A model generated the notes under the pieces. It saw nothing but the letters and a program-made list of their open reading frames with translations, did no database searches and was not told the origin of the DNA. Below, piece after piece: positions 4,301 through 58,242 of a DNA stretch of 64,000 nt. This DNA comes from an uncultured Thermoplasmata archaeon. GTDB lineage: Archaea; Thermoplasmatota; Poseidoniia; MGIII; CG-Epi1. A program made the position numbers and the translations under genes. The DNA lies in contig CAXEHI010000014.1 in the NCBI GenBank assembly GCA_963996465.1, positions 11,089 through 75,088 on the forward strand, written 5' to 3'. Position 1 is the stretch's first letter; every line of letters begins with the position of its first letter.

Positions 4301-5161
4301 ATGGTTGAAGGTAAAACTTGTCTAATAACGGGTGCATCAGACGGGATAGGAAAAGAAACCGCTCTTTCTTTGGCCAAACAAGGTGCCAAAGTAATCATAG
4401 TAGGTAGAAATCAAAAGAAGTGCGAAAATGTAGTTTCTGAAATAATTCAATTAACACAAAATAATCAGATTGAATTTCTTTTAGCAGATCTCTCTTTAAT
4501 GAGGGAAGTAAATAGTTTAGCTGAAAGAATTATGTACGGCTATAGGCATCTGGATATTCTCATTAACAACGTAGGTGCATTTTTTCGTAAAAGGGAATTA
4601 ACAGAAGAAGGTCTAGAACGAACTTTTGCATTAAATCACTTAAGTTATTTCCTTTTGACTCATAAGTTATTGCCGCTTTTAGAACATAGTTCTTCTGCTC
4701 GAATTGTAAATGTCGCTTCTATTGCTCATATACGTACTGATATGGATTTTGATAATTTGAACGGAGAGAAGAATTGGTCTTGGTTTGGGGGTGGCTGGAA
4801 TGCATACTGTTGTTCTAAATTAGCAAATATTATGTTTACTTATAATCTTTCTAAAAAATTAGAAGGAAAGCAAATTACAGCAAATTGCCTCCATCCAGGA
4901 TTCGTCGCTTCTAAATTTGGAGATAACAATGGTCTATTTTCTCGGTCTATTATCAAAACAGCTAAATTTTTCGGAGCTATAGGTGTAAAGAAAGGCTCCG
5001 AAACTAGTACCTATCTAGCTTCTTCTGATGAAGTAGAAGGGGTATCTGGCAAGTATTTTGCCTCATGTTCATTACAAAAAAGCTCAAAACAATCTCATAT
5101 TGAAAAAGATATTGAAAAACTATGGTCTATAAGTGAAGATTTCACATCTGAATATCTTTGA
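4301..5161 (+). CDS. Short-chain dehydrogenase/reductase (retinol-dehydrogenase-like SDR)
   Basis: N-terminal TGASDGIGKETA Rossmann motif and SDR-like length (286 aa). It is convergent with the next gene with a 0-nt spacer. Confidence 0.8.
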   Translation: MVEGKTCLITGASDGIGKETALSLAKQGAKVIIVGRNQKKCENVVSEIIQLTQNNQIEFLLADLSLMREVNSLAERIMYGYRHLDILINNVGAFFRKRELTEEGLERTFALNHLSYFLLTHKLLPLLEHSSSARIVNVASIAHIRTDMDFDNLNGEKNWSWFGGGWNAYCCSKLANIMFTYNLSKKLEGKQITANCLHPGFVASKFGDNNGLFSRSIIKTAKFFGAIGVKKGSETSTYLASSDEVEGVSGKYFASCSLQKSSKQSHIEKDIEKLWSISEDFTSEYL

Positions 5162-5971
5162 TTAAGTAAAAGATCTAAGGAGAACTGCTGCCATAATAAT
5201 AGTCATAATAATCATCAAAATTTCCCCTATTGCAGCAGCACCATCCTCATTTTCAATATAATGGGTATACCGTTCTTCTTTCATTTTTTGAATAGCTTCT
5301 TTTTCTATATCTGAATCATATCTAAACACCGGATTTGGACTTTCCCCCTGTGGTTTTCTTTTTCTATCCATTTCTCCTTTTGAATACGATTCTATAGCTT
5401 CTTTCATTAGTGTCGCCGCCGTAATCAATGTTTTGTAACAAGCATCTTGATACGTTTCTCCTCTTTTAATATCAATTTTACGTTTCCCCACTAAATCTCC
5501 TGCGTCTATTTCAGATGAACAAAAATGACAGCTACTTCCTATTGGAATGTCATGATATATGCTCCATGCAGGTGATGCCGAACCACGACATTCAGGTAAC
5601 AATCCTGGATGGGAATTAAGCACACCATCTCTTTTTTCTCCATATTCTAAAATCTCCCCTCTAATGATACGTGTGCCTCCAAATACAATCATTCGAGGTG
5701 AAACCCTTTCAATATGTTTCATACAATGTTCATCATTATGAATGGGTACTGTTTCTAGAGGTATATTGTTCTCCTTTGCTTGAATAGAAATCATTTTTCC
5801 AATCTCATTATTTCCAATACGGAATTCAAATTTCTTTCTTTCAGTTTCACCCACTTCTGAATCTTCTTCTATTATGAGTGCCGGTTTGAATCCAGCACCA
5901 ATAAGTTGAGATAGCATCTCTCTTCCCCATGGATGCTCCTTGATTGCCATGAATATAAAATGAGGTTTCAT
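5162..5971 (-). CDS. Formyltransferase-family protein (Fmt/PurN-like formyl_trans_N domain)
   Basis: The HPGLLPECRGSASPAWSI motif matches the formyltransferase SLLP..RG active-site signature. At 269 aa it has only the N-domain-sized fold. It is the last gene of the 9-gene operon, with a 4-nt overlap with the upstream gene. Confidence 0.65.
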   Translation of the reverse strand: MKPHFIFMAIKEHPWGREMLSQLIGAGFKPALIIEEDSEVGETERKKFEFRIGNNEIGKMISIQAKENNIPLETVPIHNDEHCMKHIERVSPRMIVFGGTRIIRGEILEYGEKRDGVLNSHPGLLPECRGSASPAWSIYHDIPIGSSCHFCSSEIDAGDLVGKRKIDIKRGETYQDACYKTLITAATLMKEAIESYSKGEMDRKRKPQGESPNPVFRYDSDIEKEAIQKMKEERYTHYIENEDGAAAIGEILMIIMTIIMAAVLLRSFT

Positions 5972-6339
5972 TTATGAGCTACCACTTTAAATTCTACAAC
6001 AATAGGTGTCGGAAGTGCGCCTACTTCAATAGTCGTGCGCGTAACTTCATATCCTTCAATATAGTCTCCATATATTTCATTGAATTTTTTAAAATCCTCT
6101 TCCATATTTGTCAAAAATACCATTATATCTACTACATTTTTCATTTCTAAGTTACACGCTTCTAACACAGCATTAACATTTCTAAACACAGCATGAGTTT
6201 GTTCTTCTATTCCTTTCGGTATCTTATCTGTTTCTGGATCTCTAGGTCCTATTCCGGATAAAAATACAAAACCACCCACTTCCTTTGCATGAACGTATGC
6301 TCCAATAGGTTTTGCAGATTTTTTTGTGTTAATCGCCAT
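5968..6339 (-). CDS. RidA/YjgF/L-PSP family protein (2-aminomuconate-deaminase-like enamine/imine deaminase)
   Basis: 123 aa with YjgF-family size and pattern (KPIGAYVHAKEVGGFVFLSGIGPRD...). It is translationally coupled inside the dioxygenase/ALDH operon. Confidence 0.75.
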   Translation of the reverse strand: MAINTKKSAKPIGAYVHAKEVGGFVFLSGIGPRDPETDKIPKGIEEQTHAVFRNVNAVLEACNLEMKNVVDIMVFLTNMEEDFKKFNEIYGDYIEGYEVTRTTIEVGALPTPIVVEFKVVAHK

Positions 6340-7288
6340 CAGTTCCTTCCATCGTTCCCATTTCTACTTGCCGATATAAATCAAGCACTTCTAAATCCCC
6401 TTCATAAACTTCAGGATCCTCTTCATCATATTCTAAATCGCCAGTTCCTTTTTCGACAGGGGTCAATGAAACCACAGCACCTCCAGTTCCCATTATTGGC
6501 TCATAAGCATGTATTTTTCCAGAATAAAGATTAGTTTGTCCCATAATTGCAGAAAGCCACCAAAATGGTTTGAAACTTACAACTTTAGGTACTCTCGCTT
6601 CTTGATGAAATTGGCGCGATAGTTGAGATACATCTTCTAGCCTCCCCTTTTCTAAATATTCTAAAAATTTTCTATTCCATTCATCATCTTTAGAAGAATG
6701 TATTTTATCATCTTCTGCATTCATGGGTGACGTAATCAATCTATTAGAAAGACTACCCACTACAACTGCAACAGCCTTTCTATTTCGTTCTTCAACTGCA
6801 TCTCTCAAAGCTTTACCCAGTACTACAGTTTCTGTTCTATTCGCATAAACATTGCTACTCACTATTATTGCTGGAATTGAATTATCTGGATTTAAGAGTT
6901 TCAAAGCAACTACAGAACCGGTATCTATAGGGAATCCTTCATAAGCTACAGTACGAGTATGAAGTCCTCTTTCTTCACATTTATCTTTGGTATAATTTGC
7001 AAATTCTGCATCTATTTTGAATTTATACGGCATACTTCCTAATTCATGAAATTCTTCATCAACATGCGTCCATTCTGGATTCGGCATTGCCTGTATTTGA
7101 TGCCCTAATACAGAAGGCCAATATGTACTATAAATTATCAATAAATCCGCATCACTTTCTTCTATCTCCTTTTTACCAATTTCAAAACCATCTCTAATAT
7201 TATTCCACCCTTTATTTTTTTCTGGACAAAGTAATGGATGAGGTAATCCAGGCACTATCATTCCTAATTTGATTATATCATTTCTCAT
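6329..7288 (-). CDS. LigB-type (class III) extradiol ring-cleavage dioxygenase, AmnB-like catalytic subunit
   Basis: 319 aa. MIVPGLPHPLL...LLIIYSTYWPSVL...YEGFPIDTGSVVA...AVAVVVGSLSN...DDEWNRKFLE resembles the 2-aminophenol-1,6-dioxygenase beta subunit and the LigB family. It overlaps the upstream paralog by 4 nt. Confidence 0.7.
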   Translation of the reverse strand: MRNDIIKLGMIVPGLPHPLLCPEKNKGWNNIRDGFEIGKKEIEESDADLLIIYSTYWPSVLGHQIQAMPNPEWTHVDEEFHELGSMPYKFKIDAEFANYTKDKCEERGLHTRTVAYEGFPIDTGSVVALKLLNPDNSIPAIIVSSNVYANRTETVVLGKALRDAVEERNRKAVAVVVGSLSNRLITSPMNAEDDKIHSSKDDEWNRKFLEYLEKGRLEDVSQLSRQFHQEARVPKVVSFKPFWWLSAIMGQTNLYSGKIHAYEPIMGTGGAVVSLTPVEKGTGDLEYDEEDPEVYEGDLEVLDLYRQVEMGTMEGTDGD

Positions 7289-8181
7289 TTTTCACCTCTT
7301 TCAGAATCCCATCCAATAATTGCATTTCCAGTTCCTATCACACTTCCATATGCATGGATTTTCGCTTCGTATTCTGGAAAATCAAGTGCACTGATTAACC
7401 AAGTTAAACTTCCTGCATCAGTCTCTGCCATTGTTTGTTCTGTAAAGTCTGGCATGATGTCTATCAATTCTCTATTTTTTCCTTTTAACATTAAATTAAT
7501 TATTTTCATATCCCAGATGTATTGATTATGATTCGTTACATGCTCTTTACTCATATCTTCAGGCAATTCAGGTTCTATTGTGAAATGTCTATGAGATAAA
7601 GAATTCGATGAAAGCAACAGTGCACGTTTGCCACTTTTTTCTATTGCTCTTCTAGTTGCTTTACCAAGTTTCAACATATTGGTCTGCATCACTTCATTTG
7701 AAAAATAGCTCGATGCACGGTTAGATGAAATCACAACTATAGGCTTGTCCCATTCTGGTCTAGTTAGGTGGCAACTAGTAATTGTTCCATAATCAATTCT
7801 AAAATCCGAATTTTCCATCATTTTAACATGTAATCCATCTTTCTCTGCCATATCATGTATTTCACGAGACAATTTTACATCAACATTCAAATCATAATCA
7901 TATCGAAAAAGATTAGGGAAAACAGGATCAACCGATTTAGATTTGAATTTTTCAACACCTAAAAAATGAGTTCCAATAAATGTTTGCCAATGTGGTGTAT
8001 GTATTACTATAACATCAAAATCTTTATCTATCATACTTTCACGCAATCGTTCATAACCCCATCTTAATTCTTCCCAACCACCTTCAGATGTAGGCTCATT
8101 TTGTGAAGGATTTTCTGCATATACTAAATGAGGTGGATGGGGTGCCAATGCTCCCATAACAATTTTTCCTTTTTCACTCAT
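7285..8181 (-). CDS. LigB-type extradiol dioxygenase paralog (AmnA-like second subunit)
   Basis: 298-aa divergent paralog of the adjacent LigB-type gene (GALAPHPPHLVY...VIVIHTPHW...). The adjacent-paralog arrangement is typical of heteromeric AmnAB/LigAB-type enzymes. Confidence 0.65.
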   Translation of the reverse strand: MSEKGKIVMGALAPHPPHLVYAENPSQNEPTSEGGWEELRWGYERLRESMIDKDFDVIVIHTPHWQTFIGTHFLGVEKFKSKSVDPVFPNLFRYDYDLNVDVKLSREIHDMAEKDGLHVKMMENSDFRIDYGTITSCHLTRPEWDKPIVVISSNRASSYFSNEVMQTNMLKLGKATRRAIEKSGKRALLLSSNSLSHRHFTIEPELPEDMSKEHVTNHNQYIWDMKIINLMLKGKNRELIDIMPDFTEQTMAETDAGSLTWLISALDFPEYEAKIHAYGSVIGTGNAIIGWDSERGEK

Positions 8182-9635
8182 TTTTCTTCACCCATTTCAA
8201 TACAGACATTTCGTAATTCCGAAAAGAAGTCTAAAGAGTATCTGCCACCTTCTCTTCCTACACCAGAGTCCTTCATTCCGCCAAACGGCACCCTCAAATC
8301 TCTTAGAAGCCAAGTATTTACCCAAACCATTCCCGATTCCAGATTTGCACTTATTCTATGTGCACGAGACAAGTCACTCGTCCAAACACTAGCAGCCAAT
8401 CCATAGTTAACGGAATTAGATATTGTAACAGCCTCCTCTTCTGATTCAAATGGATGAATAGTGGCCACAGGTCCAAATATTTCTTCTGTTGCCGTACGAC
8501 AATTAGGCGATAAACCAGAAATGATTGTAGGTTCTAAAAATGCACCATTGTTCCAAGGATTTTCCAATTTCGGCCGTTTACCTCCACACTCAACACGTCC
8601 CCCTTCTTCAATTCCCAATCTTATGTATTCTTCAACTTTATCACGATGTTCATGAGATATAACTGCCCCTAAGTCTACATTTTTATCAGAAGGATTTCCA
8701 ATTTTCATTTTCTTTGTAGTTTTTACCAATTCCTCTAAAAATCGGTCGTGAATTGTTTGTTCTACTAATATTCTAGAGCCACATAAACACACCTGTCCTT
8801 GATTCGTAAACGCCGCCTTTACTGCTCCATTTACTGCTTTCTTTATATCTGCATCAGCAAAAACTATCGTTGGATTTTTTCCACCCAATTCCAATGATAT
8901 CTTTTTAAAAGTCGAAGAAGCGGCCTCAGAAACTTTCGCTCCGGCATTCGTGGAGCCAGTAAATGATACGGCAGATACATCCCGATGTAAAGATAGCGGT
9001 TTACCCACTTTAGATCCAGAACCATGTACTAAATTAAAAACGCCGTTTGGCAGTCCAGCTTCATTCATTATTTCCGTTAATGCCGAAGCTGTTAACGGAG
9101 TCATAGAGCTCGGCTTTGCTACAATTGTATTTCCCATAACTAATGCAGGGGCGGTTTTCCATGATAGTAAATATATCGGTAAATTCCAAGGAGTTATTAA
9201 CGCAACAACTCCTAAAGGTTTTCTTAAAGTATAATTTATGGCATTCTTCATTTTATGAAATCCCAATTCATCATGACGAGCTGCACCTGCAAAAAAGCGG
9301 AAGTTAGCAATAGCTCGTGTAATGTCTGTTTCGAAAGCCAATCTAATTGGTTTACCCGTGTCTAATGATTCTAATTCAGCTAATTGTTGTTTTCTACTTT
9401 CTATAATATTCGCAATTTTTTCTAGAATATTTGCACGTTCATCTACACTTTTAGCACTCCATTCAGGCAAAGCATTCTTTGCCGCATATACTGCAGCATC
9501 CACATCTGATTTATCGCCAAGAGGTACTTTAGAAATTATATCGCCCGTAGCTGGATTTCTATTTTTCTTATATCTACCAGATACTGGGGTATGGAATTTT
9601 CCATTTATGTATTGTTTAAGCTCCATTACTTTCAT
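8178..9635 (-). CDS. NAD(P)-dependent aldehyde dehydrogenase (2-aminomuconic/hydroxymuconic semialdehyde dehydrogenase-like)
   Basis: 485 aa with ALDH hallmarks (ELGGKNP, catalytic cysteine in QGQVCLCGSRILV, EEIFGPV). It is translationally coupled to the dioxygenase genes. Confidence 0.85.
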   Translation of the reverse strand: MKVMELKQYINGKFHTPVSGRYKKNRNPATGDIISKVPLGDKSDVDAAVYAAKNALPEWSAKSVDERANILEKIANIIESRKQQLAELESLDTGKPIRLAFETDITRAIANFRFFAGAARHDELGFHKMKNAINYTLRKPLGVVALITPWNLPIYLLSWKTAPALVMGNTIVAKPSSMTPLTASALTEIMNEAGLPNGVFNLVHGSGSKVGKPLSLHRDVSAVSFTGSTNAGAKVSEAASSTFKKISLELGGKNPTIVFADADIKKAVNGAVKAAFTNQGQVCLCGSRILVEQTIHDRFLEELVKTTKKMKIGNPSDKNVDLGAVISHEHRDKVEEYIRLGIEEGGRVECGGKRPKLENPWNNGAFLEPTIISGLSPNCRTATEEIFGPVATIHPFESEEEAVTISNSVNYGLAASVWTSDLSRAHRISANLESGMVWVNTWLLRDLRVPFGGMKDSGVGREGGRYSLDFFSELRNVCIEMGEEK

Positions 9636-10732
9636 TTTTTATTTCCGTGTTCTTTAGGGTCAAAATACCATCTATCATTGTCAGGATCCCATTCATCCCA
9701 TGTATATATTTCTTTTAATGATGACAAGTATTCTGATGGCACTATTCCCGACACTAGAAATGCTTTCTGCCTTCTTAATGAGTAAGGATTTCTCAATTTC
9801 ATGCCAAGAACTCCCAAAATACCTCTAGCAATATACCATGCTGCTTGAGGGTTCCATCCATGGGCTATTTTTACCACAACACCTAAACCATTTGGATAAT
9901 TTTCGTGCTCTATTGCCATACCCAGAAGTCCATCTGCACCTTCTTTAGCTATTACTTTTCCTTTACAAGATTTTATGATAGTTGTATCTAATCGATTAAA
10001 ACCACCCACTAGGTCTGGATTTTTTACAATAGACTCCCAAATCCAATCCTCCTCTTTATTTGAAACAATACCTGCATAACACATTGCTAATTCATTCACG
10101 GTATTTGATACTGTAGGGAATCCATCTCCATCTCTAGCTATTCTTTCAGGTTCCCATTCTTCTCCTAAAAAACGTTTTACTTGTTTCAAGTATTCAAAGA
10201 AAAATTCATGGCTAGGTAATGTGTATCCAGCTCTGTTCCACCCTTTTTTTCTACACCCTCTCAGAACTGCAGCATGCTGACCTGAAGAATTAGAATACCA
10301 GCGACGCGCTCTTCTAACCTGTCTACCAAATTGTACTAAAGGAAGGTCCAGAGGAGTTTGCATCAATCCCCATTCTGCTCTAGGCAGTAATGATTGTGCA
10401 GTTTTAACATGCTCAGCAGTTCCATTATGACTTGAAACTGATATCGCTTTTTGTTCCCAACTCAAATCATTCAATTCATCAGAAAATACTTTGAGCATTA
10501 ACGGTTTCATCATGGAACGCCCATAGCATAGGACATTACCTCCAAAACTATGTATTATTTCATTACCACTTGCCCAAGATACAGCTCCATGAATTGTCGT
10601 TTCGGATACATCATTACGCCGATAATCAACTAATGGCTCCCATTCTACATCCCTCCCAGTCGGCACTTCTCCTTCTGTATCTCCTAAGGGGTCATTTGGA
10701 TATAAATTTTCAACTTCTTTAGGGTGTGTCAT
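9632..10732 (-). CDS. Asparaginase_II-family (Rhizobium-etli-type L-asparaginase II-like) amidohydrolase, function unknown
   Basis: 366 aa. HGAVSWASGNEIIHSFGGN...CYGRSMMKPLM and SNSSGQHAAVLRGC match the conserved blocks of the Asparaginase_II family as I recall them. It has 4-nt overlaps on both sides. Confidence 0.5.
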   Translation of the reverse strand: MTHPKEVENLYPNDPLGDTEGEVPTGRDVEWEPLVDYRRNDVSETTIHGAVSWASGNEIIHSFGGNVLCYGRSMMKPLMLKVFSDELNDLSWEQKAISVSSHNGTAEHVKTAQSLLPRAEWGLMQTPLDLPLVQFGRQVRRARRWYSNSSGQHAAVLRGCRKKGWNRAGYTLPSHEFFFEYLKQVKRFLGEEWEPERIARDGDGFPTVSNTVNELAMCYAGIVSNKEEDWIWESIVKNPDLVGGFNRLDTTIIKSCKGKVIAKEGADGLLGMAIEHENYPNGLGVVVKIAHGWNPQAAWYIARGILGVLGMKLRNPYSLRRQKAFLVSGIVPSEYLSSLKEIYTWDEWDPDNDRWYFDPKEHGNKK

Positions 10733-11997
10733 TTTCTAAGCTCCTCTATTCTAGGAACCACCTTTTTCATGAATGCTTTCATATTTCTTATAACTCTCTT
10801 TGAATCATGATTGAAAAAATCAAACCAAGTCATAACACAATCTTCAGGATGAAAACGCTCAACTATTTGTTCAGCTATTTCTTCTACATTTCCAATAACT
10901 GCATTATCTGCAGCTTTCGACACTTTCATTGGATCTATAGTCCCTTCAAGAGCTCCCCAATATGAATTAAGTGCTTTTTCCGCTTCTAAATTTGCTTGCT
11001 CTGTTTTTTCTCTTTCCGAAAGTCCATCTTCATCATTAATGAACACCATAATAGTTCTAGGCATATATTCTCTTTTCCAAGAACCACCTTCAGGGTGATA
11101 ATGTTCTCTCATTCGTTCATGTGTTTTTTCTATTACTTCAGGCGGCGTTATCGATAAATTAAATGTTTTTACGGGTCTTATTTTATTCACTTTTTTTTGT
11201 AGTTCTGGATCATGCGAGCCTAATATAAGATCTAGTAAATCTCTATTCCAATTTTGCGGTATATTTTTTACGTCTTCAAACTCATATCTTTTAGGTATTT
11301 CTATTTTTTCAGGCATCTCTTTCAAGCCATCCCTTTCCATAGTCGCTATCTGAACTCGATTCCAATCTTCATCACTTCGAAATAATTTTCTTTCTAGTAT
11401 TGTTTTCGATATCATATCGCTATTGACTATTTCACCATTCAATAATTTCAAGAATATTTCACAAGCTTCAGAAAATATTTGTCCTCTTAGTGCGGGCCAC
11501 GCTATTTCTTCCACAGCATCTCTCGGGACAATCCCATACGGTCTCGCCATAAATTCAAACCTTCCTGCAGAAAATCCAATACGCAGTTTACGATTCTCTT
11601 CTTTTTTAAGTCCATGAAGCGTAATGAAAGATCCTATTCTCTCAGCTATTCCTATCGGTCCTCCATGTGTTAAAAGACTCATCACAGCCGAACCAACATT
11701 TATTTTTTTTGTAGATAAAAATACTAAATGTGCCAACTGAAAAAAATCAGTACATAATCCAACTTCTCCGTTCCAATGAGGAACTACTGGGTTTTTGTTG
11801 TTTTTCTGCACTTCCGTGGAAAGATGTGCCTGTGCCACCCATGCAGTTTCAAAACCAAATTCGTCTGCAGCCTTTACTTGCTCGAAAAAAGACTCAAACA
11901 TTTCTCGTTCACTAGGCATTTCTCCTTCTACAGGGGTATGGCATATTGATAGAAAAATGTCAAATTTCATCTCAAATAGAACTCGTTCTTCCACCAT
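10729..11997 (-). CDS. Luciferase-like (LLM) flavin-dependent monooxygenase/oxidoreductase
   Basis: 422 aa. The FGFETAWVAQAHL motif is characteristic of the bacterial-luciferase-like family. It lies in the operon between the SDR and the Asparaginase_II-like gene. Confidence 0.65.
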   Translation of the reverse strand: MVEERVLFEMKFDIFLSICHTPVEGEMPSEREMFESFFEQVKAADEFGFETAWVAQAHLSTEVQKNNKNPVVPHWNGEVGLCTDFFQLAHLVFLSTKKINVGSAVMSLLTHGGPIGIAERIGSFITLHGLKKEENRKLRIGFSAGRFEFMARPYGIVPRDAVEEIAWPALRGQIFSEACEIFLKLLNGEIVNSDMISKTILERKLFRSDEDWNRVQIATMERDGLKEMPEKIEIPKRYEFEDVKNIPQNWNRDLLDLILGSHDPELQKKVNKIRPVKTFNLSITPPEVIEKTHERMREHYHPEGGSWKREYMPRTIMVFINDEDGLSEREKTEQANLEAEKALNSYWGALEGTIDPMKVSKAADNAVIGNVEEIAEQIVERFHPEDCVMTWFDFFNHDSKRVIRNMKAFMKKVVPRIEELRK

Positions 11998-12724
11998 CTA
12001 CTGGAAGACTAACTCCTCTCACAAAGCTTGCTTCTGGCGATGCTAAAAAAGCCACAACACTTCCTAATTCAGAAGGGGTTGCAAGTCTACCCTCAGGTAC
12101 AGTTTCTAACCAAGTACTTTCAACATCTTCTGTTGTACAATTGCGTTGTTTAGCTAAAGTTTTTTTCAATTCTTCTAATCTTCCAGTCGACGTAAAACCG
12201 GGAAGAACATTGTTAATCGTAATTCCTCTTGGCAGTTCTTTGGACATCGTCTTTGACCATGATGCCATTGCACCTCTTATTGTATTACTAACACCCAGTC
12301 CAGCTATCGGCTCTTTTACAGAGGTTGAAATAATATTAATAATTCTCCCATATTTTGATTGTTCCATACCAGGAAGGGTCAAACCAACCAATTTTTGAGA
12401 CGCAAGTACATGCCTTCTAAATGCCTTTTCAAATTCTTCTACTTCTGCTTTAACAATCGGTCCAGATGGCGGACCTCCTGAATTATTTATCAAAATTTGA
12501 TAGTTTCCATTCTTTTCTATGTCTTTTTTTACATTTTCTTCTAAACTTTTTAAATTTTCCATATCACAAGATATTCCATTTTTACCTTCTGCCGTACGAG
12601 CTAAAATAGTTACTTCTGCTCCTCTTTTAACAAGCGCATCAGCAGCAGCTTTTCCTATTCCTTTAGTCCCACCACACACTAATGCCCTATATCCGCTCAA
12701 GTCAGTCATTTGCTTCTCCCACAA
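11972..12724 (-). CDS. Short-chain dehydrogenase/reductase (3-oxoacyl-ACP-reductase-like SDR)
   Basis: VCGGTKGIGKAAADALVKRGAEV Rossmann motif and an NNSG motif. 250 aa. Confidence 0.8.
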   Translation of the reverse strand: MWEKQMTDLSGYRALVCGGTKGIGKAAADALVKRGAEVTILARTAEGKNGISCDMENLKSLEENVKKDIEKNGNYQILINNSGGPPSGPIVKAEVEEFEKAFRRHVLASQKLVGLTLPGMEQSKYGRIINIISTSVKEPIAGLGVSNTIRGAMASWSKTMSKELPRGITINNVLPGFTSTGRLEELKKTLAKQRNCTTEDVESTWLETVPEGRLATPSELGSVVAFLASPEASFVRGVSLPVDGGRTSSI

Positions 12725-13715
12725 AACTATAAAATTCAGAATTTTTTAATTCGGGCAATGCTTCTTTTTTAATCAATATCGTTCTAACACCCCATAAATC
12801 TGTAAAAACCCGATATCTCGCCGTTCTATCTAAATAATCTACACCAGAAGAACCACCCGTTCCTATTCTACGTCCAATCATTCTTTCAACCATACGGGCA
12901 TGCGAAGATCTCCACAATAGCATTGCTTCTTCTAACTCTACCATTGTATCGATTAGTTTTCTTGGCCAAGATAACAAAGGCAGTTCACGATATGATTCTA
13001 TAAATAAAAGTCCAGTACGACTTCGATCACATTTACCATTCGGTTTTAGAAATTCAGATGCTTGCTTGTTTACCTCTTCAAATTTATTACTAATATTTTC
13101 ACTATCATTATCAGACAACGTACGGGCGGCCTTTTCACCTAATTTAAGATGGATATTTAGGTACTCATTTACAAATTCTTCAACTATTTTATCGTCATTA
13201 GAATCATCCGGCAATGACCCCTGTATAGGTGTTCTTGAAAGCCATTTGGTAACAACTTCTTGTATTGATTTTTCATTTAATTGATTTTCTATTTTTTTAC
13301 CATCAACCCAAAAATCTCCCATTATCGCTTCCATCATTCTCATTTGTTTAGATTCAAAACCAGAAGCAGTTCCCAATTCATCTCTGAACGATAAAAATCC
13401 TTGAGGAGTCAAAGTTTCCATAACTTTCCACTGTTGTGCCATCAATCTAAAAGTTTCAATTGCTCTTTCCATGTGATGTACAGCTTTAGGTATTTCAGTT
13501 TCTTGCACATAACTCCTATCTAATGTATCCCTTGCTTGCGTTAGTTCACTAATCACAAGTTTAAACCAAAGCTCAAAAGATTGATGTACAATTATGAAAT
13601 GAAGCTCATCTGCACTTATATCTTCTTCATTTTCTTTCCACCCACTTTGTAAAGATAACAACTCTTTCAGACGCAAATATTCTGGATAACTTCCTTTATT
13701 TGTAGGTGTAGGCAT
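12702..13715 (-). CDS. kynA: Tryptophan 2,3-dioxygenase
   Basis: 337 aa. YPEYLRLKELLSLQ, HFIIVHQSFELWFK and LDRTARYRVFTDLWGVRT match the conserved TDO blocks (HxxxHQxxELWxK). It is the first gene of the operon. Confidence 0.8.
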   Translation of the reverse strand: MPTPTNKGSYPEYLRLKELLSLQSGWKENEEDISADELHFIIVHQSFELWFKLVISELTQARDTLDRSYVQETEIPKAVHHMERAIETFRLMAQQWKVMETLTPQGFLSFRDELGTASGFESKQMRMMEAIMGDFWVDGKKIENQLNEKSIQEVVTKWLSRTPIQGSLPDDSNDDKIVEEFVNEYLNIHLKLGEKAARTLSDNDSENISNKFEEVNKQASEFLKPNGKCDRSRTGLLFIESYRELPLLSWPRKLIDTMVELEEAMLLWRSSHARMVERMIGRRIGTGGSSGVDYLDRTARYRVFTDLWGVRTILIKKEALPELKNSEFYSFVGEAND

Positions 13716-13753
13716 ACTTTACTAAATTTAGACGGAATATAAAGTATAGAGGT

Positions 13754-28679: not shown

Positions 28680-31600
28680 ATGAATCGTAACGTTTTGCCG
28701 CTTTTAGTGTGTGCAATACTCATTTCCACTCCATTATTTATGCCTCTTTCAGAGTCATCCAAAAACGACAAAGATGTTCAAGGCTGGTGGTCTAATTATT
28801 CTAGGGATAAAGATAGGGATGGAATCAGTGATGTATTAGAATGGAAATTACAACAAGGCGATCGTTTCTTTGATTCAGATTCAGCACGGGTTTTCATAAG
28901 ATACAATCATCACCCTACAGATTCTGATATTGAAAAATTAGAAAACTTAGGAATAGATGTAACTTATCGTGCTCAATATATCGATTTAGTTGCTACTACA
29001 ATGCCTCGTAATTTGGTCTATCCAGTTTCTACTTGGAACGGCGTTGTAATGCTCGATGACATCGGTAAAGCAGTTCCACATATGAATGAAGCCGTTCCTG
29101 CAATGGGCGTAAATCAAGTTTGGGAAAATTACGGTATTTATGGAGAAGGAATTTCTATCGCTATAGTTGACACTGGGGTCGATAATGCCCATGTTGGTTT
29201 AGATGATATGGATGATAATCAGTTCACTATGGATGATCTAAAAGTTGTAGCTTATTATGATGCAGTTCAAGATAATGTAGTATGTTCACCATGCTTACCT
29301 GGTGAATCTTTAGATAGTGGTACACACGGCACTCATGTTGCAGGAATAGCTGCAGGTACTGGTGATGGGGATGCAGCACCAGACGGATCACGCCATATCG
29401 GCGTCGCACCAAAAGCTAGCTTAGTCAACGTTCTTTCATGTTGTGATGGCGATATTGAAGACATTATCAGAGGCGTCGAATGGACAATAACTAATCAAAA
29501 ACTAGTAGAACCAAATATCAGAGTTATGACATCCAGTCTCGGCGAACAACAAATCGAATTTCATATCGATAATGATGGTAGCTCTGCTTGGAGCCAAGTT
29601 GTTGATGCCGCAGTAGAATCTGGCCTCGTAGTTACTTTGAGTGCAGGTAATGAATTCGGCTCAGCTACTGCAGCCGGTTGCAACACTATTGACTCACCTG
29701 GCGATTCAAGATTACCCATAACAGTCGCTTCTCTTGACAAAGATTTGAGTTTGGCAATATATAGTTCCAGAGGTTACACTTCAGACGGAAGGGTCAAGCC
29801 AGATGTCGCTGCTATAGGAAGTAGTATCATGGCCCCTAACAAAGGTACTGGAACAGGTTACACCAGTAAGAGTGGAACTAGTATGGCTACACCTTTGATG
29901 GCAGGTATTGTAGCTTTAACTTTAGAGGCTAATCCCGATTTAACTCCAACAGAAGTTAAGGATACATTAGTTGCAGGTTATTCTATCGAACGAGAAATAT
30001 TAGATGATGATATAGATGCAGCATCCAATAATTGCTCAATTGCAGAAACTAGACCAGATAATGAATACGGGTATGGTCAGGCTGATCCAAAAACTTTCGT
30101 AGATATTTCTGGAAATATCGATGCTTCTTTGAGTATCAACTGGTCGTTAGAACCTGAATATATGTTAGTGAATGATTCTTACGTAGAGGTCAAACCAAGA
30201 ATATACAACGGAAGTTGGATTCGGGGCGTATCTGATTCTTCTGGTCAATCAGTTAGCATTGGTGTCGAAGTTCGCTTTGGCGTTGATAGTTGGTCTTTAG
30301 CAGACGATTTGTCAGATAATGGTGATTGGAGTGAGTGGCAAATCCAAGTCCCCGAACAGACCAAAAAGGGTAATCAAACATTATATGCAAGATTAGTGGT
30401 CAATTCTGAACAAATGTCTCCTATGGCATCAGCATCCGTAGTTCTTCTTAATGAATATGATACTGATGATATTGGCTCTATTTCTTCTCTTTCAGATTCA
30501 ACAATTCTTTTACTAACAGTATTATTGCTCGCTTTAACTGTCGGAGTAGGTATTCCCGTATGGAAACGTTATCAAAAATTAGTTAACAGTAGTACAGAAA
30601 ATCAAAAACAGAATGTCAATCATCTCTTATTATTTAGATCTTTAACAGATGCTGCTCAGATTGCATTACTATACTGGACGGCTATGCGTTTCTTTTTACG
30701 GGATGAGGGGGCAAGCCAATCTTTAGTTTCCGCCTATTACGGAATCGCGCTATTGGTTTTGGGCGTCAGTTTAATTTTTTGGGGTCACATAGCCGATACA
30801 TACGGTTCTAGAAGAAAAATCCTTCTTTACACCTCACTTGGCTGTACTATACTCTATCTCTTTATTCCATTTTTAGGCATATATGGTACCATTTTCATTT
30901 CTATACTTCTATTGATGCTTCATGGTTCAGGTCGTATACCTAGGGCTATCGCTTCTGAATACTATCCAAATCGTCAAGGTGAATTTAATGGCGTTTTCTG
31001 GGGAATGTTCGCTTTGATATATTCCGTAGCATACCTCGCTGCTCCATCAATATATGAATCTCTTGGTATGAATGCAATAGTCTTGTTCTGTTTATTATTG
31101 AATATTGCTGCAGCATTCTGCGCATTCCGTTTAAACGAAGTCGATATTATGGCTGGAACATTAGTTACCGACTCATCTAATCATCTCAATTTTAATGTAA
31201 ATTCTTTCTCTTTGGATTCTCTACGTTTCAAGAATTCGTGGGTTAAATGGATTTTACTAACAGTTTTCTTAATCTATATTCCTCGAGGCGTCATCGTTTA
31301 CAATGCTCCGAATTATTTTGACGATATTGGCTATGATAGGAGTTTTGTCGGTGTAATAATGGGATATTCAGTTATAGCATCTGTTATTCTTTATCCATGG
31401 CTCGGTTCCATTTGTGATCGTTTAGGAGCTTGGCAGGTACTTCTCTGGTCTGCCTTATTGTATATTCTTCTATGGGGCACTTTCAGTTCTGCTGTATCTA
31501 CTCATCTATCTGCATTTATTTTTATAATTCCCGTAATTCCATTTTTACGTACTTCTAGAGATACATTAATGTCTCAATTAACTGCCTTAGATGAACGGAG

Positions 31601-31817
31601 TAAAGGTATGGGATGGGGTGTTTTCGTAGGGACACTCGGATATTCAGTTGGCGCGTTTTTCGCATCCGCAATGTTAGGTTGGTTAGATGCCAAAGATATG
31701 GAAATTCAAATGCAATATCTTTACACGTTTAGAGCCAGTTTAGTATTTCTTTTGTTGGCTTCTGTAGTTGCATGGTGGCTAAATAAGAATACAACCAAGG
31801 AGGCTACCGTTTGGTAG
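28680..31817 (+). CDS. Fusion protein: secreted subtilisin-like serine protease (peptidase S8) joined in-frame to a 12-TM MFS-type permease
   Basis: Signal peptide, then the S8 catalytic triad contexts AIVDTGV (Asp), HGTHVAG (His) and GTSMATP (Ser) in residues ~150-400. A TM anchor (ILLLTVLLLALTVGVGIPV) follows. The last ~450 aa carry about 12 TM helices and the MFS motif-A-like GHIADTYGSRRK between TM2 and TM3. There is no stop codon between the two parts. Confidence 0.75.
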   Translation: MNRNVLPLLVCAILISTPLFMPLSESSKNDKDVQGWWSNYSRDKDRDGISDVLEWKLQQGDRFFDSDSARVFIRYNHHPTDSDIEKLENLGIDVTYRAQYIDLVATTMPRNLVYPVSTWNGVVMLDDIGKAVPHMNEAVPAMGVNQVWENYGIYGEGISIAIVDTGVDNAHVGLDDMDDNQFTMDDLKVVAYYDAVQDNVVCSPCLPGESLDSGTHGTHVAGIAAGTGDGDAAPDGSRHIGVAPKASLVNVLSCCDGDIEDIIRGVEWTITNQKLVEPNIRVMTSSLGEQQIEFHIDNDGSSAWSQVVDAAVESGLVVTLSAGNEFGSATAAGCNTIDSPGDSRLPITVASLDKDLSLAIYSSRGYTSDGRVKPDVAAIGSSIMAPNKGTGTGYTSKSGTSMATPLMAGIVALTLEANPDLTPTEVKDTLVAGYSIEREILDDDIDAASNNCSIAETRPDNEYGYGQADPKTFVDISGNIDASLSINWSLEPEYMLVNDSYVEVKPRIYNGSWIRGVSDSSGQSVSIGVEVRFGVDSWSLADDLSDNGDWSEWQIQVPEQTKKGNQTLYARLVVNSEQMSPMASASVVLLNEYDTDDIGSISSLSDSTILLLTVLLLALTVGVGIPVWKRYQKLVNSSTENQKQNVNHLLLFRSLTDAAQIALLYWTAMRFFLRDEGASQSLVSAYYGIALLVLGVSLIFWGHIADTYGSRRKILLYTSLGCTILYLFIPFLGIYGTIFISILLLMLHGSGRIPRAIASEYYPNRQGEFNGVFWGMFALIYSVAYLAAPSIYESLGMNAIVLFCLLLNIAAAFCAFRLNEVDIMAGTLVTDSSNHLNFNVNSFSLDSLRFKNSWVKWILLTVFLIYIPRGVIVYNAPNYFDDIGYDRSFVGVIMGYSVIASVILYPWLGSICDRLGAWQVLLWSALLYILLWGTFSSAVSTHLSAFIFIIPVIPFLRTSRDTLMSQLTALDERSKGMGWGVFVGTLGYSVGAFFASAMLGWLDAKDMEIQMQYLYTFRASLVFLLLASVVAWWLNKNTTKEATVW

Positions 31818-45321: not shown

Positions 45322-48300
45322 TTACGAACAACCAGTTGTTGCACCACAACCCAAACATTTGAAGCAACTACCATTAGGAACTAGTTTGAATTGTCCACAT
45401 TCTGGACAAGGATCTCCGGAATATCCCATCTTAATCGCTTCACTCGCAGTTTCATTTCCACCCCGAACATCCGTTGAAACAACATTCACATTTTCTAAAT
45501 CTGTAGTGTCATACATTGTATCAATCGTTCCAACATCATCTAAAGTCATCTGTACTTCGTGATTATCTGTGGTTTCTGAGCTAGGTCTCAATTTGTTTCG
45601 ACTTTCCCGTTCATTTTTTTCTTCAGCCGCAGTTCTCAAAGTATCATGCATCAAATCTTCCGGTGTAACTTGGATGCCCAAGTCTGCTCGTCCTAGATAA
45701 TTTATGGCTAAATCTCTAAATAAATAATCTATAACACTAGTGCTCATCTTTATTCTTTCATTTCCAATAACTGGGCCATTAGGTTCAAATCTGCTGAAGA
45801 CAAACGCATCCACAAATTCTTCCAGAGGCACTCCATGTTGAAGTCCAAGACTAACTGCTATAGCAAAACTATTCATTAACGAACGGAAAGCAGCACCTTC
45901 TTTGTGCATATTGATGAATATTTCACCTAGTGTTCCATCATCATATTCGCCCGTGCTCAAGAATATACTATGGCCAGCTATCTTAGCTTTCTGAGTATAT
46001 CCGCCTCTCTTGTTAGGCATTCTTCTTCTTTGCGCTATATATCTAGTTATGACTTTCTTGGCAACTGATTTTGCATTTGGAATAGGGAGGGATTCAGCTA
46101 GCATCTCTGCCGCAGCTCCAGGCGTCATCATTCCTTCAGGAATCATCATCTCTTCATCTTCCTCCATTTCTATCGCAGATGCAATTTCAAGCAATGCTCC
46201 AGACATCAAAGGTTGACTCAGTTTACTCGCATCTCTATATACTGCCATAGCTTTGTTCATCAATTTCCACGATAATTCATAAACTTCTTCAATATCTTCT
46301 ACAAGAACTTCATGCGGCATGTTTATCGTTTTCGATATTGCTCCACTTATGAATGGCTGAGCTGCCGCCATCATTCGAACATGAGCCTTATAGTCAATAG
46401 ATCGCATTCCATATTTACCACATTTATTGGCACAATCAAATACTGCAAGATGTTCTTCCTTGATATGAGGTGCATCTTCTATTGTAAGTTTACCAAAAAT
46501 ACGATTCTCAGCTTCCTCTATCTGTTGCTCTGAAAAACCCATATGTTCGAGTAATACAAACGTCGGATCATTCATCTGTTCATCCGTAAGTTTCAAATTC
46601 TTTTTACAGAATTCATCACCTATATTGAGGGGTGTAAACAACATTTTCATCGAAGTCAAACTAGCAACACGTTTTTCTAGTTCAGATAATACTTTTTCTG
46701 TAAATCCATAATTCGTTAATGTTTCATTATTGATATGTGGTGCCCCATCAAATTTTCCAGTTCCTATTATGTAATCTATAATCTCATCTCTTTCAGAATC
46801 TGAATATCCCAGTTTTTTCAACGCTAGAGGGACTGATTGATTTATTATTTTTAGAGATCCGCCGCCTGCTAATGTTTTAAATTTAATTAAAGCGAAATCA
46901 GGTTCTATTCCTGTAGTATCACAATCCATTACAATACCTATAGTGCCAGTAGGTGCAATCACTGTTGCTTGAGCATTTCTATATCCATATTTTTCACCCA
47001 TTTCTAATGCAGAATCCCATGCATTCTTAGCTGCATTTACTAAATAATCTGGGCAACTATCTGGATTTATTCCCTGAGGCGTTATTGTTAATCCTTCATA
47101 ATTTTCTGGCTTTTTATTATATGCAGCTCTACGGTGATTTCTAATCACTCTCAACATTTCATTTTTGTTATATTCGTATCTTTCAAATGTCCCTATAACT
47201 CCTGCCATTTCAGCACTAGTTGCATAACTTATCCCGCCTAATATTGCAGTAAGAGATCCACATATCGCATACGCACGAGGGTCATCATATGGTATACCCA
47301 TTCTCATTAACAACGATCCAATATTTGCATATCCTAATCCTAATGTTCGATATTCGTAGCTAAGGCGCGCTATCGCCTCGCTTGGAAATTGCGCCATCAG
47401 TACCGATATCTCTAGAACTACAGTCCATATTCTTACGGCATGTTCGTAGGCCTCAACATCGAATGTTTCCGTTTCTTCATCGTAAAAACTACCTAGATTC
47501 AAACTTGCTAAATTACATGCCGTATCATCTAAGAACATATATTCAGAACACGGATTACTGCCTCTTATTTTTCCATCCTTCGGACAAGTATGCCACTCAT
47601 TTATTGTTGAATGGTATTGTATTCCAGGATCTGCACATGACCATGCTGCCTGAGATATCTTCCTCCACAAGTCATTAGCCGGCATACTCTTACAAGGTTC
47701 AGCCACTCTATCTTCTTTCTTTGCCTTCACTAACTCAGTTCTCCAATAAAGGTTCCATACACCATCTTTGGCAACAGCTTCCATAAAGTCGTTCGTCACT
47801 CTTACAGAATTATTACTATTCTGTCCAGAAACAGTTTGATAAGCTTCACCTTCCCATTCAGTACCATATGTATCAAATTCTATAGATGTCCATCCCTGTT
47901 CACCTAATTCTAAAACTCTTCCTATCAAACTATTCGGTATGTGTGCCTTCATTGCCTTTTTCAAAGCTTTAGCTAGTTCTTGATTCTCATTTTGATCCAT
48001 CCTTTTTTCTGTATCTGGATATGCCTGTATCGCTGCCAATAATTCATTACAATGTTCTTGTATATGCAATGAACCAGAAACCAATCCCGCTACTTTCTCT
48101 TCTTCTTTAACTTTCCATTCTATGAATTCTTCTATATCTGGATGATCCATATCTAAACTAACCATTTTCGCTGCACGTCTAGTTGTTCCACCAGATTTGA
48201 TAGCTCCTGCAGCAGTGTCTCCTATTTTTAGAAACGACATCAATCCAGAACTTGTTCCACCACCAGACAGCGTTTCACCTTCACCCCTTATGTGTGAAAA

Positions 48301-58163: not shown

Positions 58164-58205
58164 AAAATAATAATTAATAATTATTATTAATAGTTATTTC
58201 ACAAG

Positions 58206-58214
58206 CTTTATATG
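58206..58214 (+). promoter_or_regulatory. Candidate TATA box for the giant adhesin gene
   Basis: CTTTATATG lies about 29-37 nt upstream of the ATG at 58243. It is preceded by a 36-nt pure A/T tract containing the 12-bp palindrome TAATAATTATTA (58175-58186). Confidence 0.3.
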
Positions 58215-58242
58215 CGGTGCATACGTAAACGCGAAGGGTGCG

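Follow-up and report, generated by a model that had tools for sequence, protein, structure and literature searches.

A nine-gene operon of marine archaea and bacteria proposed to degrade L-tryptophan by way of kynurenine and 2-aminophenol

The closest described systems to the locus reported here are the operons for meta-cleavage of 2-aminophenol and the kynurenine pathway of tryptophan degradation. The former, the amn, cnb and nba operons of pollutant-degrading Pseudomonas, Burkholderia and Comamonas, have amnRJBACDFEHG as their reference organisation (PMC3790839) and combine an upper pathway of nitroreductase and mutase with a contiguous set consisting of a beta-before-alpha LigB dioxygenase, an AmnC-type aldehyde dehydrogenase (ALDH) and a RidA-family deaminase. 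The latter starts with tryptophan 2,3-dioxygenase (TDO or KynA) and includes KynA–KynB–KynU, kynurenine 3-monooxygenase (KMO), the cupin 3-hydroxyanthranilate dioxygenase (HAO), 2-amino-3-carboxymuconic semialdehyde (ACMS) decarboxylase (ACMSD), 2-aminomuconate 6-semialdehyde dehydrogenase (AMSDH) and 2-aminomuconate deaminase (AMD). We analysed a stretch of 64,000 nucleotides from an uncultured Thermoplasmata archaeon (assembly GCA_963996465.1, contig CAXEHI010000014.1, positions 11,089 to 75,088), referred to here as the window, in which nine genes (genes 1–9 in Table 1) join TDO to an AmnBA-type ring-cleavage module through a short-chain dehydrogenase/reductase (SDR), a divergent luciferase-like monooxygenase (LLM) and an Asparaginase_II-like (AsnII-like) hydrolase, and end with genes for a RidA/YjgF-family protein and a formyltransferase-fold (FT-like) protein.

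This locus has the contiguous dioxygenase, ALDH and RidA-family genes in common with the amn, cnb and nba operons, but the order is C–B–A–D and there is no amnFEHG, no MarR regulator and no amnJ; the place of the nitroreductase and mutase is taken by TDO (with KynB in bacterial versions), SDR, LLM and the AsnII-like protein, and its hosts, marine archaea and bacteria, are oligotrophs rather than pollutant degraders. With the kynurenine pathway it has in common the TDO start, KynB in the bacterial versions, and convergence on 2-aminomuconic semialdehyde, 2-aminomuconate and 2-oxohex-3-enedioate through homologous ALDH and AMD-type proteins, whereas LLM, AsnII-like and AmnBA proteins stand in place of kynureninase, KMO, the cupin HAO and ACMSD. 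The side chain of kynurenine, which leaves as alanine in the known pathway, would here leave as aspartate, and no quinolinate/NAD branch would be possible. NAD or quinolinate biosynthesis was itself ruled out as a role for the operon on chemistry, as a semialdehyde derived from 2-aminophenol is without the 3-carboxyl group that quinolinate requires.

We propose that in the first step TDO would open the indole ring of tryptophan to give N-formyl-L-kynurenine, from which the formyl group would be removed by KynB in bacteria and by the FT-like protein in this archaeon, possibly onto tetrahydrofolate, to give kynurenine (step 2). LLM would then act on kynurenine by placing an oxygen atom between its ketone carbon and the o-aminophenyl group, with aryl migration (step 3), yielding the beta-(2-aminophenyl) ester of aspartate, which would be able to rearrange to N4-(2-hydroxyphenyl)asparagine, and the Ser–Lys hydrolase encoded by the AsnII-like gene would free L-aspartate and 2-aminophenol (step 4). 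In the last steps AmnB and AmnA would turn 2-aminophenol into 2-aminomuconic semialdehyde (5a), the AmnC-like ALDH would make 2-aminomuconate from it (5b), and the RidA/AMD-like protein would deaminate this to 4-oxalocrotonate and ammonia (5c). The two ends of the scheme fix what lies between: kynurenine is set as an intermediate because KynA and KynB stand at the operon ends, and a simple o-aminophenol is set as the ring-cleavage substrate because AmnB is close to characterised enzymes and is accompanied by an AmnC-type ALDH, which leaves only the SDR, LLM and AsnII-like genes between these endpoints. The role suggested for the AsnII-like protein follows because the LLM product would be a beta-aspartyl compound, with an acyl moiety suited to the asparaginase-II catalytic apparatus. 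We consider that the operon probably catabolises tryptophan via kynurenine to 2-aminomuconate, a linkage to tryptophan that is strengthened because bacterial versions carry kynA and kynB at the operon ends; for all nine genes acting as one L-tryptophan catabolic operon by the Baeyer-Villiger/aspartyl route to 2-aminophenol meta-cleavage we see the chances as even, and for the Baeyer-Villiger and beta-aspartyl hydrolase mechanism taken by itself as even or a shade under.

Counts over loci refer to a sample of 84, archaeal and bacterial, made up of the best 80 GTDB loci among at least 589 genomes having an LLM relative (found by scanning one genome per GTDB species) and four metagenome contigs.

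The ring-cleavage module was assigned through its nearest relatives of known structure. Gene 6 matched 3vsg_B (E 9e-107) and 8ihg_A (4e-106) in the PDB over the full length and ungapped, and also 7txy_B (3e-93); these relatives act on 2-aminophenol and 2-amino-5-chlorophenol, and the next different enzyme was HpaD at only 1e-10. The gene 6 residues H15, H64 and E253 align ungapped with His13, His62 and Glu251 of CnbCb, which we take to be the Fe ligands (2-His-1-carboxylate) of that enzyme. Gene 7, which is 27% identical to gene 6, lies directly 3' of it with a 4-nt overlap and matched the alpha subunits 3vsg_A (8e-41) and 7txy_A (1e-40), with 4,5-DOPA dioxygenase turning up only for this subunit (E 0.005). 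Since gene 6 matches the catalytic beta and gene 7 the alpha subunit, the LigB genes are in the order AmnB then AmnA, as in known amn operons. A preliminary description of the locus made from the sequence had them the other way round, but its recognition of an AmnB/AmnA/AmnC-type triad is borne out by the best PDB matches (2-aminophenol 1,6-dioxygenase subunits and AMSDH), and among LigB proteins the beta subunit does fall nearest to the AmnB/CnbCb type. Genes 6 and 7 are strong homologs of 2-aminophenol 1,6-dioxygenase and are predicted to have this activity (the AmnBA product absorbs near 380 nm).

For the gene 5 ALDH, each of the seven best PDB matches (E 1e-149 to 5e-140) was a 2-aminomuconate 6-semialdehyde dehydrogenase. 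Gene 8 passes the generic RidA model TIGR00004 and shares 45–50% identity with the orthologues of bacterial operons, 37 alignment columns being invariant. For the planctomycete orthologue the first-ranked PDB match was the AMD structure 6izh (6e-28); 2-aminomuconate deaminase is the probable identity of gene 8, though this is not secure. No genes for the lower pathway (4-oxalocrotonate decarboxylase, 2-keto-4-pentenoate hydratase, aldolase or acylating acetaldehyde dehydrogenase) were found in the 64-kb window. We also note that the window ALDH shares only 53–56% identity with its counterpart in the archaeal operons nearest to this one (L001–L014), where the adjoining genes are 70–80% identical, and 57–63% identical to the ALDHs of bacterial operons, and this suggests that the ALDH gene may have been replaced within the operon or that the operon may be of mosaic origin.

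At the other end of the operon, gene 1 matches Trp_dioxygenase over residues 9–314 of 337 and far above the cutoff of 34.9 bits, with Drosophila and human TDO as the best PDB matches (E 2e-44 to 1e-40). Residues Y10, Y13, H44 (in HQSFELWF), R111 (SFRDEL) and H272 (WRSSHARM), as well as GTGGSSG (G285–G291), align with those of the Drosophila and human enzymes, and we take H272 to be the proximal heme His, H44 the distal His, R111 the carboxylate-binding residue, Y10 and Y13 the Tyr pair, and GTGGSSG the substrate loop. With both family and catalytic residues in place, gene 1 is expected to act as a TDO. It should be noted that the operon TDOs, both archaeal and bacterial, are long forms whose nearest solved relatives are metazoan TDOs (E 1e-44), and that short bacterial TDOs match them less well (E 1e-30, over the N-terminal stretch only).

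In bacterial loci a gene following RidA is a Cyclase gene (PF04199) which we identified as the KynB arylformamidase (TIGR03035, 207 bits, full length), and no KynB homolog was found in the 64-kb window by tblastn. The last position of the operon can be taken by the FT-like gene, as in the window, or by KynB, as in a planctomycete contig (L086). Of the 84 loci, 21 (bacterial) have KynB and 41 have the FT-like gene, with no locus common to the two sets. The FT-like gene is found only in archaeal-type loci, including two contigs binned as bacteria that have the archaeal arrangement. These two (L005, labelled Flammeovirgaceae, and L082, labelled Yoonia) have low to moderate G+C and reach 76% identity to the window, and are probably mis-binned contigs of Marine Group II (MGII).

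Gene 9 retains the catalytic triad N119-x-H121 and D156 and the folate-loop motif HPGLLPxxRG of formyltransferases that depend on N10-formyl-tetrahydrofolate; both are kept in 37 orthologues and align with sugar N-formyltransferases, Fmt and PurN (6nbp, 4iqf). It belongs to no named formyltransferase subfamily, because all NCBIfam equivalog scores were far below their cutoffs. We consider the substitution of KynB by the FT-like protein to be an evenly balanced proposal; deformylation of N-formylkynurenine is suggested because the distribution of the FT-like gene is complementary to that of KynB, and since N10 of tetrahydrofolate is an arylamine, formyl transfer to folate would be chemically reasonable. 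The window archaeon does have genes for the folate-dependent PurH and a FolC-like ligase. The FT-like protein may instead carry out simple hydrolysis or have an unrelated role. Gene 9 ends in a 31-aa hydrophobic extension (5162–5254) not present in orthologues of 238 aa, and for that reason a conserved membrane anchor was ruled out. Its stop codon abuts the stop of a convergent and unrelated SDR gene (4301–5161) with zero spacer, and the extension may have arisen by loss of the original stop codon. In operons of Marine Group III (MGIII) type (L006, L007, L008, L010 and L012) ALDH and AmnB are separated by an additional gene for an alpha/beta hydrolase (e.g. L007, 13783–14751).

Of the linking enzymes we take LLM first. 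The PF00296 match of gene 3 (against a cutoff of 27.9 bits) covers the N-terminal 113 residues only, and since a sequence search of the PDB returned nothing better than E 0.04, a function cannot be transferred to it by homology. The AlphaFold2 model (pLDDT 90.5) is a luciferase-type TIM barrel, which Foldseek matched to luciferases and LLMs with a probability of 1.00, TM scores (target-normalised) of 0.65–0.78 and 13–19% identity. The best folds were bacterial luciferases (1luc), RslO1, an Agrobacterium monooxygenase, 3,6-diketocamphane monooxygenase (3,6-DKCMO), RutA and SfnG, and 3,6-DKCMO (4uwm), a type II Baeyer-Villiger monooxygenase (BVMO), was match 20 with 15% identity. Luciferase and the type II BVMOs use carbonyl-directed flavin-peroxide chemistry. 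The TIM-barrel fold is thus common to gene 3, the type II BVMOs (3,6- and 2,5-diketocamphane monooxygenases) and bacterial luciferase, which are among its best structural matches (8cbb, 1luc and 4uwm); these enzymes rely on a separate flavin reductase, and gene 3 differs from them in its low identity and in having about 80 extra residues. The family is a narrow one, with 314 of 1.84e9 cluster representatives matched at E ≤ 1e-3, of which about a dozen are full length with 34–61% identity. Some 240 homologs carry generic labels ('LLM class flavin-dependent oxidoreductase', 'luciferase' or 'alkanesulfonate monooxygenase SsuD'), all are from metagenome-assembled genomes (MAGs), and no cultured host was found among those listed. 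Outside this module, members of the LLM and AsnII-like families are essentially absent. We propose that gene 3 is a kynurenine Baeyer-Villiger monooxygenase of the group C FMN type.

Two known pathways provide analogies for such a step. In Pseudomonas fluorescens ACB, the pathway that starts from 4-hydroxyacetophenone monooxygenase has a BVMO and an esterase which lead to a phenol which then undergoes ring cleavage, and the logic proposed here is alike in having oxygen insertion at an electron-rich aryl ketone, ester hydrolysis and ring cleavage; there, however, the enzymes are a single-component type I FAD/NADPH BVMO and an alpha/beta esterase, in place of the type II-like FMN enzyme and asparaginase-fold hydrolase that we propose to act on an amino-acid substrate. 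The Rut pyrimidine pathway comprises the RutA LLM, the RutF flavin reductase, the RutB amidohydrolase and the RidA-family RutC. Its operon likewise unites a hydrolase and a member of the RidA family with an LLM whose flavin peroxide attacks a carbonyl, but substrates and hydrolase fold differ, the RidA-like protein of our module (as judged from the bacterial orthologue) groups with 2-aminomuconate deaminase, and there is no reductase of the HpaC/RutF type.

The AsnII-like protein, gene 4, matches the Rhizobium etli class 3 asparaginases ReAIV and ReAV (PF06089) at E 3e-11, a low degree of similarity, and its residues R72, S73, K76, S101 and K263 correspond to ReAV Arg47, Ser48, Lys51, Ser80 and Lys263, with R72-S73-x-x-K76 forming the motif; all five are invariant or nearly so in 67 orthologues. 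In ReAV these residues are essential, with Ser48 the nucleophile that forms a beta-acyl enzyme and Arg47 holding the alpha-carboxylate of the substrate L-Asn (PMC12292245). The zinc ligands Cys135, Lys138 and Cys189 of ReAV are replaced by Ser, Gln and Asp, which in gene 4 stand within SNSSGQHA and RDGDGFPT, and the replacement is seen in all 67 orthologues; because of this replaced zinc site we did not file gene 4 as an L-asparaginase. Fold family and catalytic residues are therefore those of ReAIV/ReAV, whereas the zinc site, the proposed leaving group (2-aminophenol instead of ammonia) and the setting in an aromatic catabolic operon are different. We propose, from these residues, that gene 4 is a hydrolase of the beta-aspartyl 2-aminophenyl ester or of N4-(2-hydroxyphenyl)asparagine.

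The SDR, gene 2, has intact Rossmann GGTKGIG and NNSGG motifs, but is not a classical SDR, with the catalytic YxxxK position reading S141-N-T-I-R145 and kept in this form in 52 orthologues. The SDR structures closest to it in the PDB (5va8 and 1o5i) have the same variant motif and were given generic SDR/FabG-type names by their depositors. One candidate role is that of an NAD(P)H:flavin reductase serving LLM, suggested because SDR is the immediate 5' neighbour of LLM in most loci. No flavin reductase of the HpaC, SsuE or RutF type is present in the operon. Reduction of the ring-fission product is another candidate role, analogous to that of the metazoan 2-aminomuconate reductase which has recently been described (bioRxiv 10.64898/2026.06.05.730449).

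The gene content is equally compatible with a route in which LLM, with or without SDR, makes 3-hydroxykynurenine or another o-aminophenol still bearing a side chain, AmnBA cleaves this directly, and the AsnII-like protein takes an amide or ester off the product of ring fission. 3-Hydroxykynurenine is an o-aminophenol, and such a route would give an upper-pathway role to SDR, which keeps next to TDO in loci where insertions split it from LLM (L061 and L065). We regard this route as unlikely: the similarity of AmnB to enzymes for unsubstituted or chloro-substituted aminophenols and of the ALDH to 2-aminomuconate-semialdehyde dehydrogenases points to an unsubstituted product, and the alpha-carboxylate anchor and nucleophile set retained from ReAV fit a beta-aspartyl substrate, which would arise naturally only by insertion of oxygen next to the ring.

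The nine genes are intact open reading frames (ORFs), all on the minus strand from 13715 to 5162 in the ORF listing of the window, with overlaps at successive junctions from gene 1 to gene 9 of 23, 26, 4, 4, 4, 4, 11 and 4 nt, and in a Pfam profile search each named family scored above its gathering threshold, so that the preliminary description was right in its nine same-strand genes with 4–26-nt overlaps and in all its family assignments. The 23- and 26-nt overlaps are probably an artefact of over-extended starts in genes 2 and 3, because the orthologues are of 245 aa (SDR) and 413 aa (LLM), and use of the internal ATGs at 12709 and 11970 would reduce them to an 8-nt overlap and a 1-nt spacer. 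The G+C content of the operon (0.35–0.38) is in line with the rest of the window, and the surrounding genes identified in a Pfam scan of the window ORFs (eIF-6, L31e, S19e, deoxyhypusine synthase, Pus10, primase and GyrA) are those of an archaeal chromosome; the labels on the nearest LLM homologs are Candidatus Poseidoniia / Marine Group II. The TATA-like box CTTTATATT sits within the 38-nt spacer between the deoxyhypusine synthase and TDO genes and is a possible operon promoter, in which case the mRNA would be leaderless or have a short leader.

Table 1. Positions in the window of the nine operon genes and of a TATA-like box upstream of gene 1.
Feature	Positions	Strand	Basis
TATA-like box CTTTATATT	13736..13744	-	About 25 nt 5' of the TDO start codon; read from sequence
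Gene 1, tryptophan 2,3-dioxygenase (KynA/TDO), 337 aa	12702..13715	-	PF03301, 192 bits
Gene 2, atypical SDR, 245 aa from probable ATG 12709	11972..12724	-	adh_short_C2, 108 bits
Gene 3, divergent LLM, 413 aa from probable ATG 11970	10729..11997	-	PF00296, 35 bits
Gene 4, Asparaginase_II-like Ser-Lys hydrolase, 366 aa	9632..10732	-	PF06089, 140 bits
Gene 5, NAD-dependent ALDH, AmnC-like, 485 aa	8178..9635	-	PF00171, 584 bits
Gene 6, predicted 2-aminophenol 1,6-dioxygenase beta subunit, AmnB/CnbCb-like, 298 aa	7285..8181	-	LigB, 84/75 bits for the pair
Gene 7, predicted alpha subunit of the 2-aminophenol 1,6-dioxygenase	6329..7288	-	LigB; PDB match 3vsg_A
Gene 8, RidA/YjgF-family protein, 123 aa	5968..6339	-	PF01042 (Ribonuc_L-PSP), 97 bits
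Gene 9, formyltransferase-fold (FT-like) protein, 269 aa	5162..5971	-	PF00551, 36 bits

The module is widely distributed, and LLM relatives also occur in thousands of metagenomic protein clusters. The 80 GTDB loci come from MGII and MGIII archaea as well as from MAGs that carry the labels Planctomycetota, Myxococcota, 'Deltaproteobacteria', Bdellovibrionales, Rickettsiales, Enterobacterales and Holophagales, with identities to the window of 57–76% for LLM and 56–78% for AmnB, and the combination is not peculiar to archaea. When the nine window proteins were mapped, SDR–LLM–AsnII–ALDH–AmnB–AmnA–RidA was collinear in nearly all of the 80 loci that were long enough and the flanks were unrelated, though some lineages have unrelated genes lying between ALDH and AmnB, or separating SDR from LLM. 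The planctomycete contig L086, a protein of which is recorded on 58 contigs, provides an exact nine-gene parallel with overlapping genes (TDO–SDR–LLM–AsnII–ALDH–LigB–LigB–RidA–KynB), and an alphaproteobacterial contig of 1.95 Mb has a similar arrangement in which unrelated genes separate TDO from SDR. The gene-neighbourhood comparison between archaea and bacteria thus confirmed the recurrence of the core gene order, and because this is repeated in dozens of independent loci in two domains with different flanks it cannot be put down to chance; the nine genes almost certainly represent a conserved functional unit. The module has evidently moved as a unit between marine bacteria and MGII/MGIII archaea, judging from these sequence comparisons.

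Kynureninase, KMO, cupin HAO and ACMSD families were not found among the window ORFs scanned with Pfam, and neither these nor the lower-pathway families were recurrent near the module when ORFs of the 84 loci were clustered. Among 145 flank ORFs of the bacterial loci the 25 most frequent Pfam families were housekeeping only, a ranking in which rarer single occurrences may be hidden. In 17 archaeal loci, which include L015, L022 (16788–18464), L030, L032, L064 and L081, an APC-family amino-acid permease with C-terminal EF-hands is found just downstream of the module and is a candidate importer of tryptophan or kynurenine. In an alphaproteobacterial MAG (L085, 2937–9073), genes for MarR, an FAD_binding_3 monooxygenase, an NMO-family protein and a Rieske protein lie directly upstream of the operon and may be accessory or regulatory.

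This distribution also bears on whether tryptophan is the substrate at all. In 26 loci out of 84, spread over both domains, TDO was detected within or adjoining the module, and many contigs are incomplete; such a low count would suit a module for an exogenous aromatic amine, aminophenol or other indole or aryl-ketone, with TDO and KynB mere neighbours or acting on a tryptophan analogue, and classical amn clusters do serve xenobiotic degradation (PMC3790839). We consider this improbable, as in archaea and in bacterial phyla unrelated to one another the operon lies between KynA and KynB, with genes that overlap or nearly abut, TDO retains the Arg that binds the L-Trp carboxylate and the GTGGSSG loop, and the LLM and AsnII-like families are essentially limited to the module. 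Furthermore, the hosts are from the open ocean, where nitroaromatic pollutants would be an implausible source of selection.

The preliminary description had taken TDO as the entry enzyme of a rewired tryptophan catabolism from which the canonical downstream kynurenine enzymes are missing, and this outline stands, supported by the heme- and substrate-binding residues kept in TDO, by the lack of the canonical enzymes in the window or as recurrent neighbours in the 80 loci, and by the kynA and kynB genes at the ends of bacterial versions. The assignments it made within that outline fared less well. In these LLM substituted for KMO by C3 hydroxylation, the amidohydrolase for the formamidase or kynureninase, and the LigB pair for HAO in cleaving 3-hydroxyanthranilate, with ALDH and RidA finishing to 2-aminomuconate. 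The presence of TDO among missing canonical enzymes would accord with this, and ALDH and RidA would suit the late classical steps, but we find it highly improbable. Cleavage of 3-hydroxyanthranilate gives ACMS, and a route through it needs kynureninase and ACMS decarboxylase, neither of which is present in the window, with no decarboxylase recurrent in the 80 loci; the full-length and ungapped match of AmnB is to enzymes for 2-aminophenol and 2-amino-5-chlorophenol. Release of alanine from (hydroxy)kynurenine is a C–C cleavage by a PLP enzyme, which is not to be expected of a Ser–Lys acyl-enzyme hydrolase such as gene 4, and the AsnII-like protein as the missing formamidase was ruled out, as it co-occurs with KynB in bacterial operons. 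To our knowledge, aromatic hydroxylation is not typical of LLM-type FMN enzymes, and we found no support for LLM as a KMO, with carbonyl-directed (Baeyer-Villiger) oxygenation fitting the gene set best. We give next to no credence to a biosynthetic operon that, instead of harvesting carbon and nitrogen, would turn tryptophan into picolinate, a phenoxazinone or some other small molecule, for although 2-aminomuconic semialdehyde cyclises to picolinic acid non-enzymatically (PMC3790839) and no lower-pathway genes adjoin the module, the ALDH and deaminase directly after the dioxygenase would draw flux from picolinate, the tailoring, export or regulatory genes usual in secondary metabolism are missing, and the recurrent neighbour in archaeal loci is an amino-acid permease.

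A number of observations weigh against the proposed Baeyer-Villiger/aspartyl scheme. While it employs every gene except SDR and requires no missing enzyme, SDR is left without a step, and steps 2–4 were placed from the genes' surroundings and from what is chemically plausible. Baeyer-Villiger and other LLM chemistries are not separable by the fold search, and F420-dependent reductases were also among the gene 3 fold matches, though ranked lower. No canonical flavin reductase adjoins LLM in the SDR-less loci L034, L041, L040, L043, L020 and L033, and in three loci (L019, 9–3341; L033, 2438–5754; and L053) LLM–ALDH is found without adjoining AsnII-like or AmnBA genes, which may reflect a reduced or split module or a different use of LLM (the gene order is LLM–ALDH–KynB in L019 and L033 and SDR–LLM–ALDH in L053). 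Some of the equivalog scores fall short: TDO scored 160.5 bits against the TIGR03036 cutoff of 390.7, with the 264-position model matched in two stretches, KynB was below the TIGR03035 cutoff of 223, and the best NCBIfam match of the ALDH, TIGR03216 (2-hydroxymuconic semialdehyde dehydrogenase), was at 591 bits against a cutoff of 693. Gene 8 ranked an archaeal generic RidA first in the PDB (1.7e-23) and AMD 6izh tenth (3.3e-18), and is without a 13-aa insertion present in every other aligned operon orthologue (L027, L035, L086 and others) and apparently also in 6izh, from its ungapped alignment with the L086 orthologue; the RidA of the window lineage has lost these residues. Human RIDA, a generic RidA, did not accelerate 2-aminomuconate deamination, whereas dedicated deaminases do (bioRxiv 10.64898/2026.06.05.730449). 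There are no amnFEHG-type genes near the module that could take 4-oxalocrotonate onward, and the alpha/beta hydrolase of some MGIII-type operons could be the real formamidase or an esterase there.

Three other features of the window are recorded here. An ORF of 1045 aa at 28680–31817 (plus strand) has S8 subtilase and MFS transporter domains in an unusual protease–transporter fusion, and an ORF of at least 1942 aa at 58174–64000 (plus strand), which reaches the window end and has Ig-like, CARDB, DUF11 and FixG_C-type repeats, presumably encodes a cell-surface protein. The class II ribonucleotide reductase at 45322–49023 (minus strand, 1233 aa), in which the barrel domain was matched in two stretches and is accompanied by a TSCPD domain, may hold an intein or large insertion.

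We found no prior description of the cluster or of a kynurenine-to-2-aminophenol step in the full-text literature searched, which does not extend to subscription journals, so that such a description may still exist. PMC12113859 only lists PICRUSt-type pathway names and has no description of the cluster, and the MGII genomics and transcriptomics literature that we examined does not mention tryptophan, dioxygenase or aminophenol. This points to a junction via orphan enzymes that is undescribed in the literature searched, between a kynurenine-pathway entry and an AmnBA/AmnC/AMD lower half which are both known. A study of an actinobacterial microcompartment (PMC10470539) says explicitly that the natural 2-aminophenol precursor for AmnBA-type pathways is unknown, and our analysis suggests that this precursor is tryptophan. 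Put more widely, and with rather less than even confidence, we suggest that marine archaea and bacteria split kynurenine by an FMN Baeyer-Villiger enzyme and then a zinc-less asparaginase-like hydrolase into L-aspartate and 2-aminophenol, a route not found on present pathway maps, that tryptophan is a natural source of 2-aminophenol, and that an archaeal FT-like enzyme replaces the formamidase.

If this is true, three or four new enzyme functions would be found within one globally distributed operon, and functions would be provided for a narrow orphan LLM family, a zinc-less branch of the class 3 asparaginases, an SDR branch without the catalytic Tyr, and an orphan formyltransferase. The operon is also a clear example of how an entire catabolic operon has passed between bacteria and archaea, with a proposed non-orthologous replacement of KynB by the FT-like gene within it. 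The finding bears on how tryptophan is disposed of by abundant uncultured heterotrophs of the ocean, including MGII/MGIII archaea and marine Planctomycetota and Myxococcota, and since the operon is found in at least 589 species-level genomes, a new route would be quantitatively relevant to the turnover of marine dissolved organic nitrogen.

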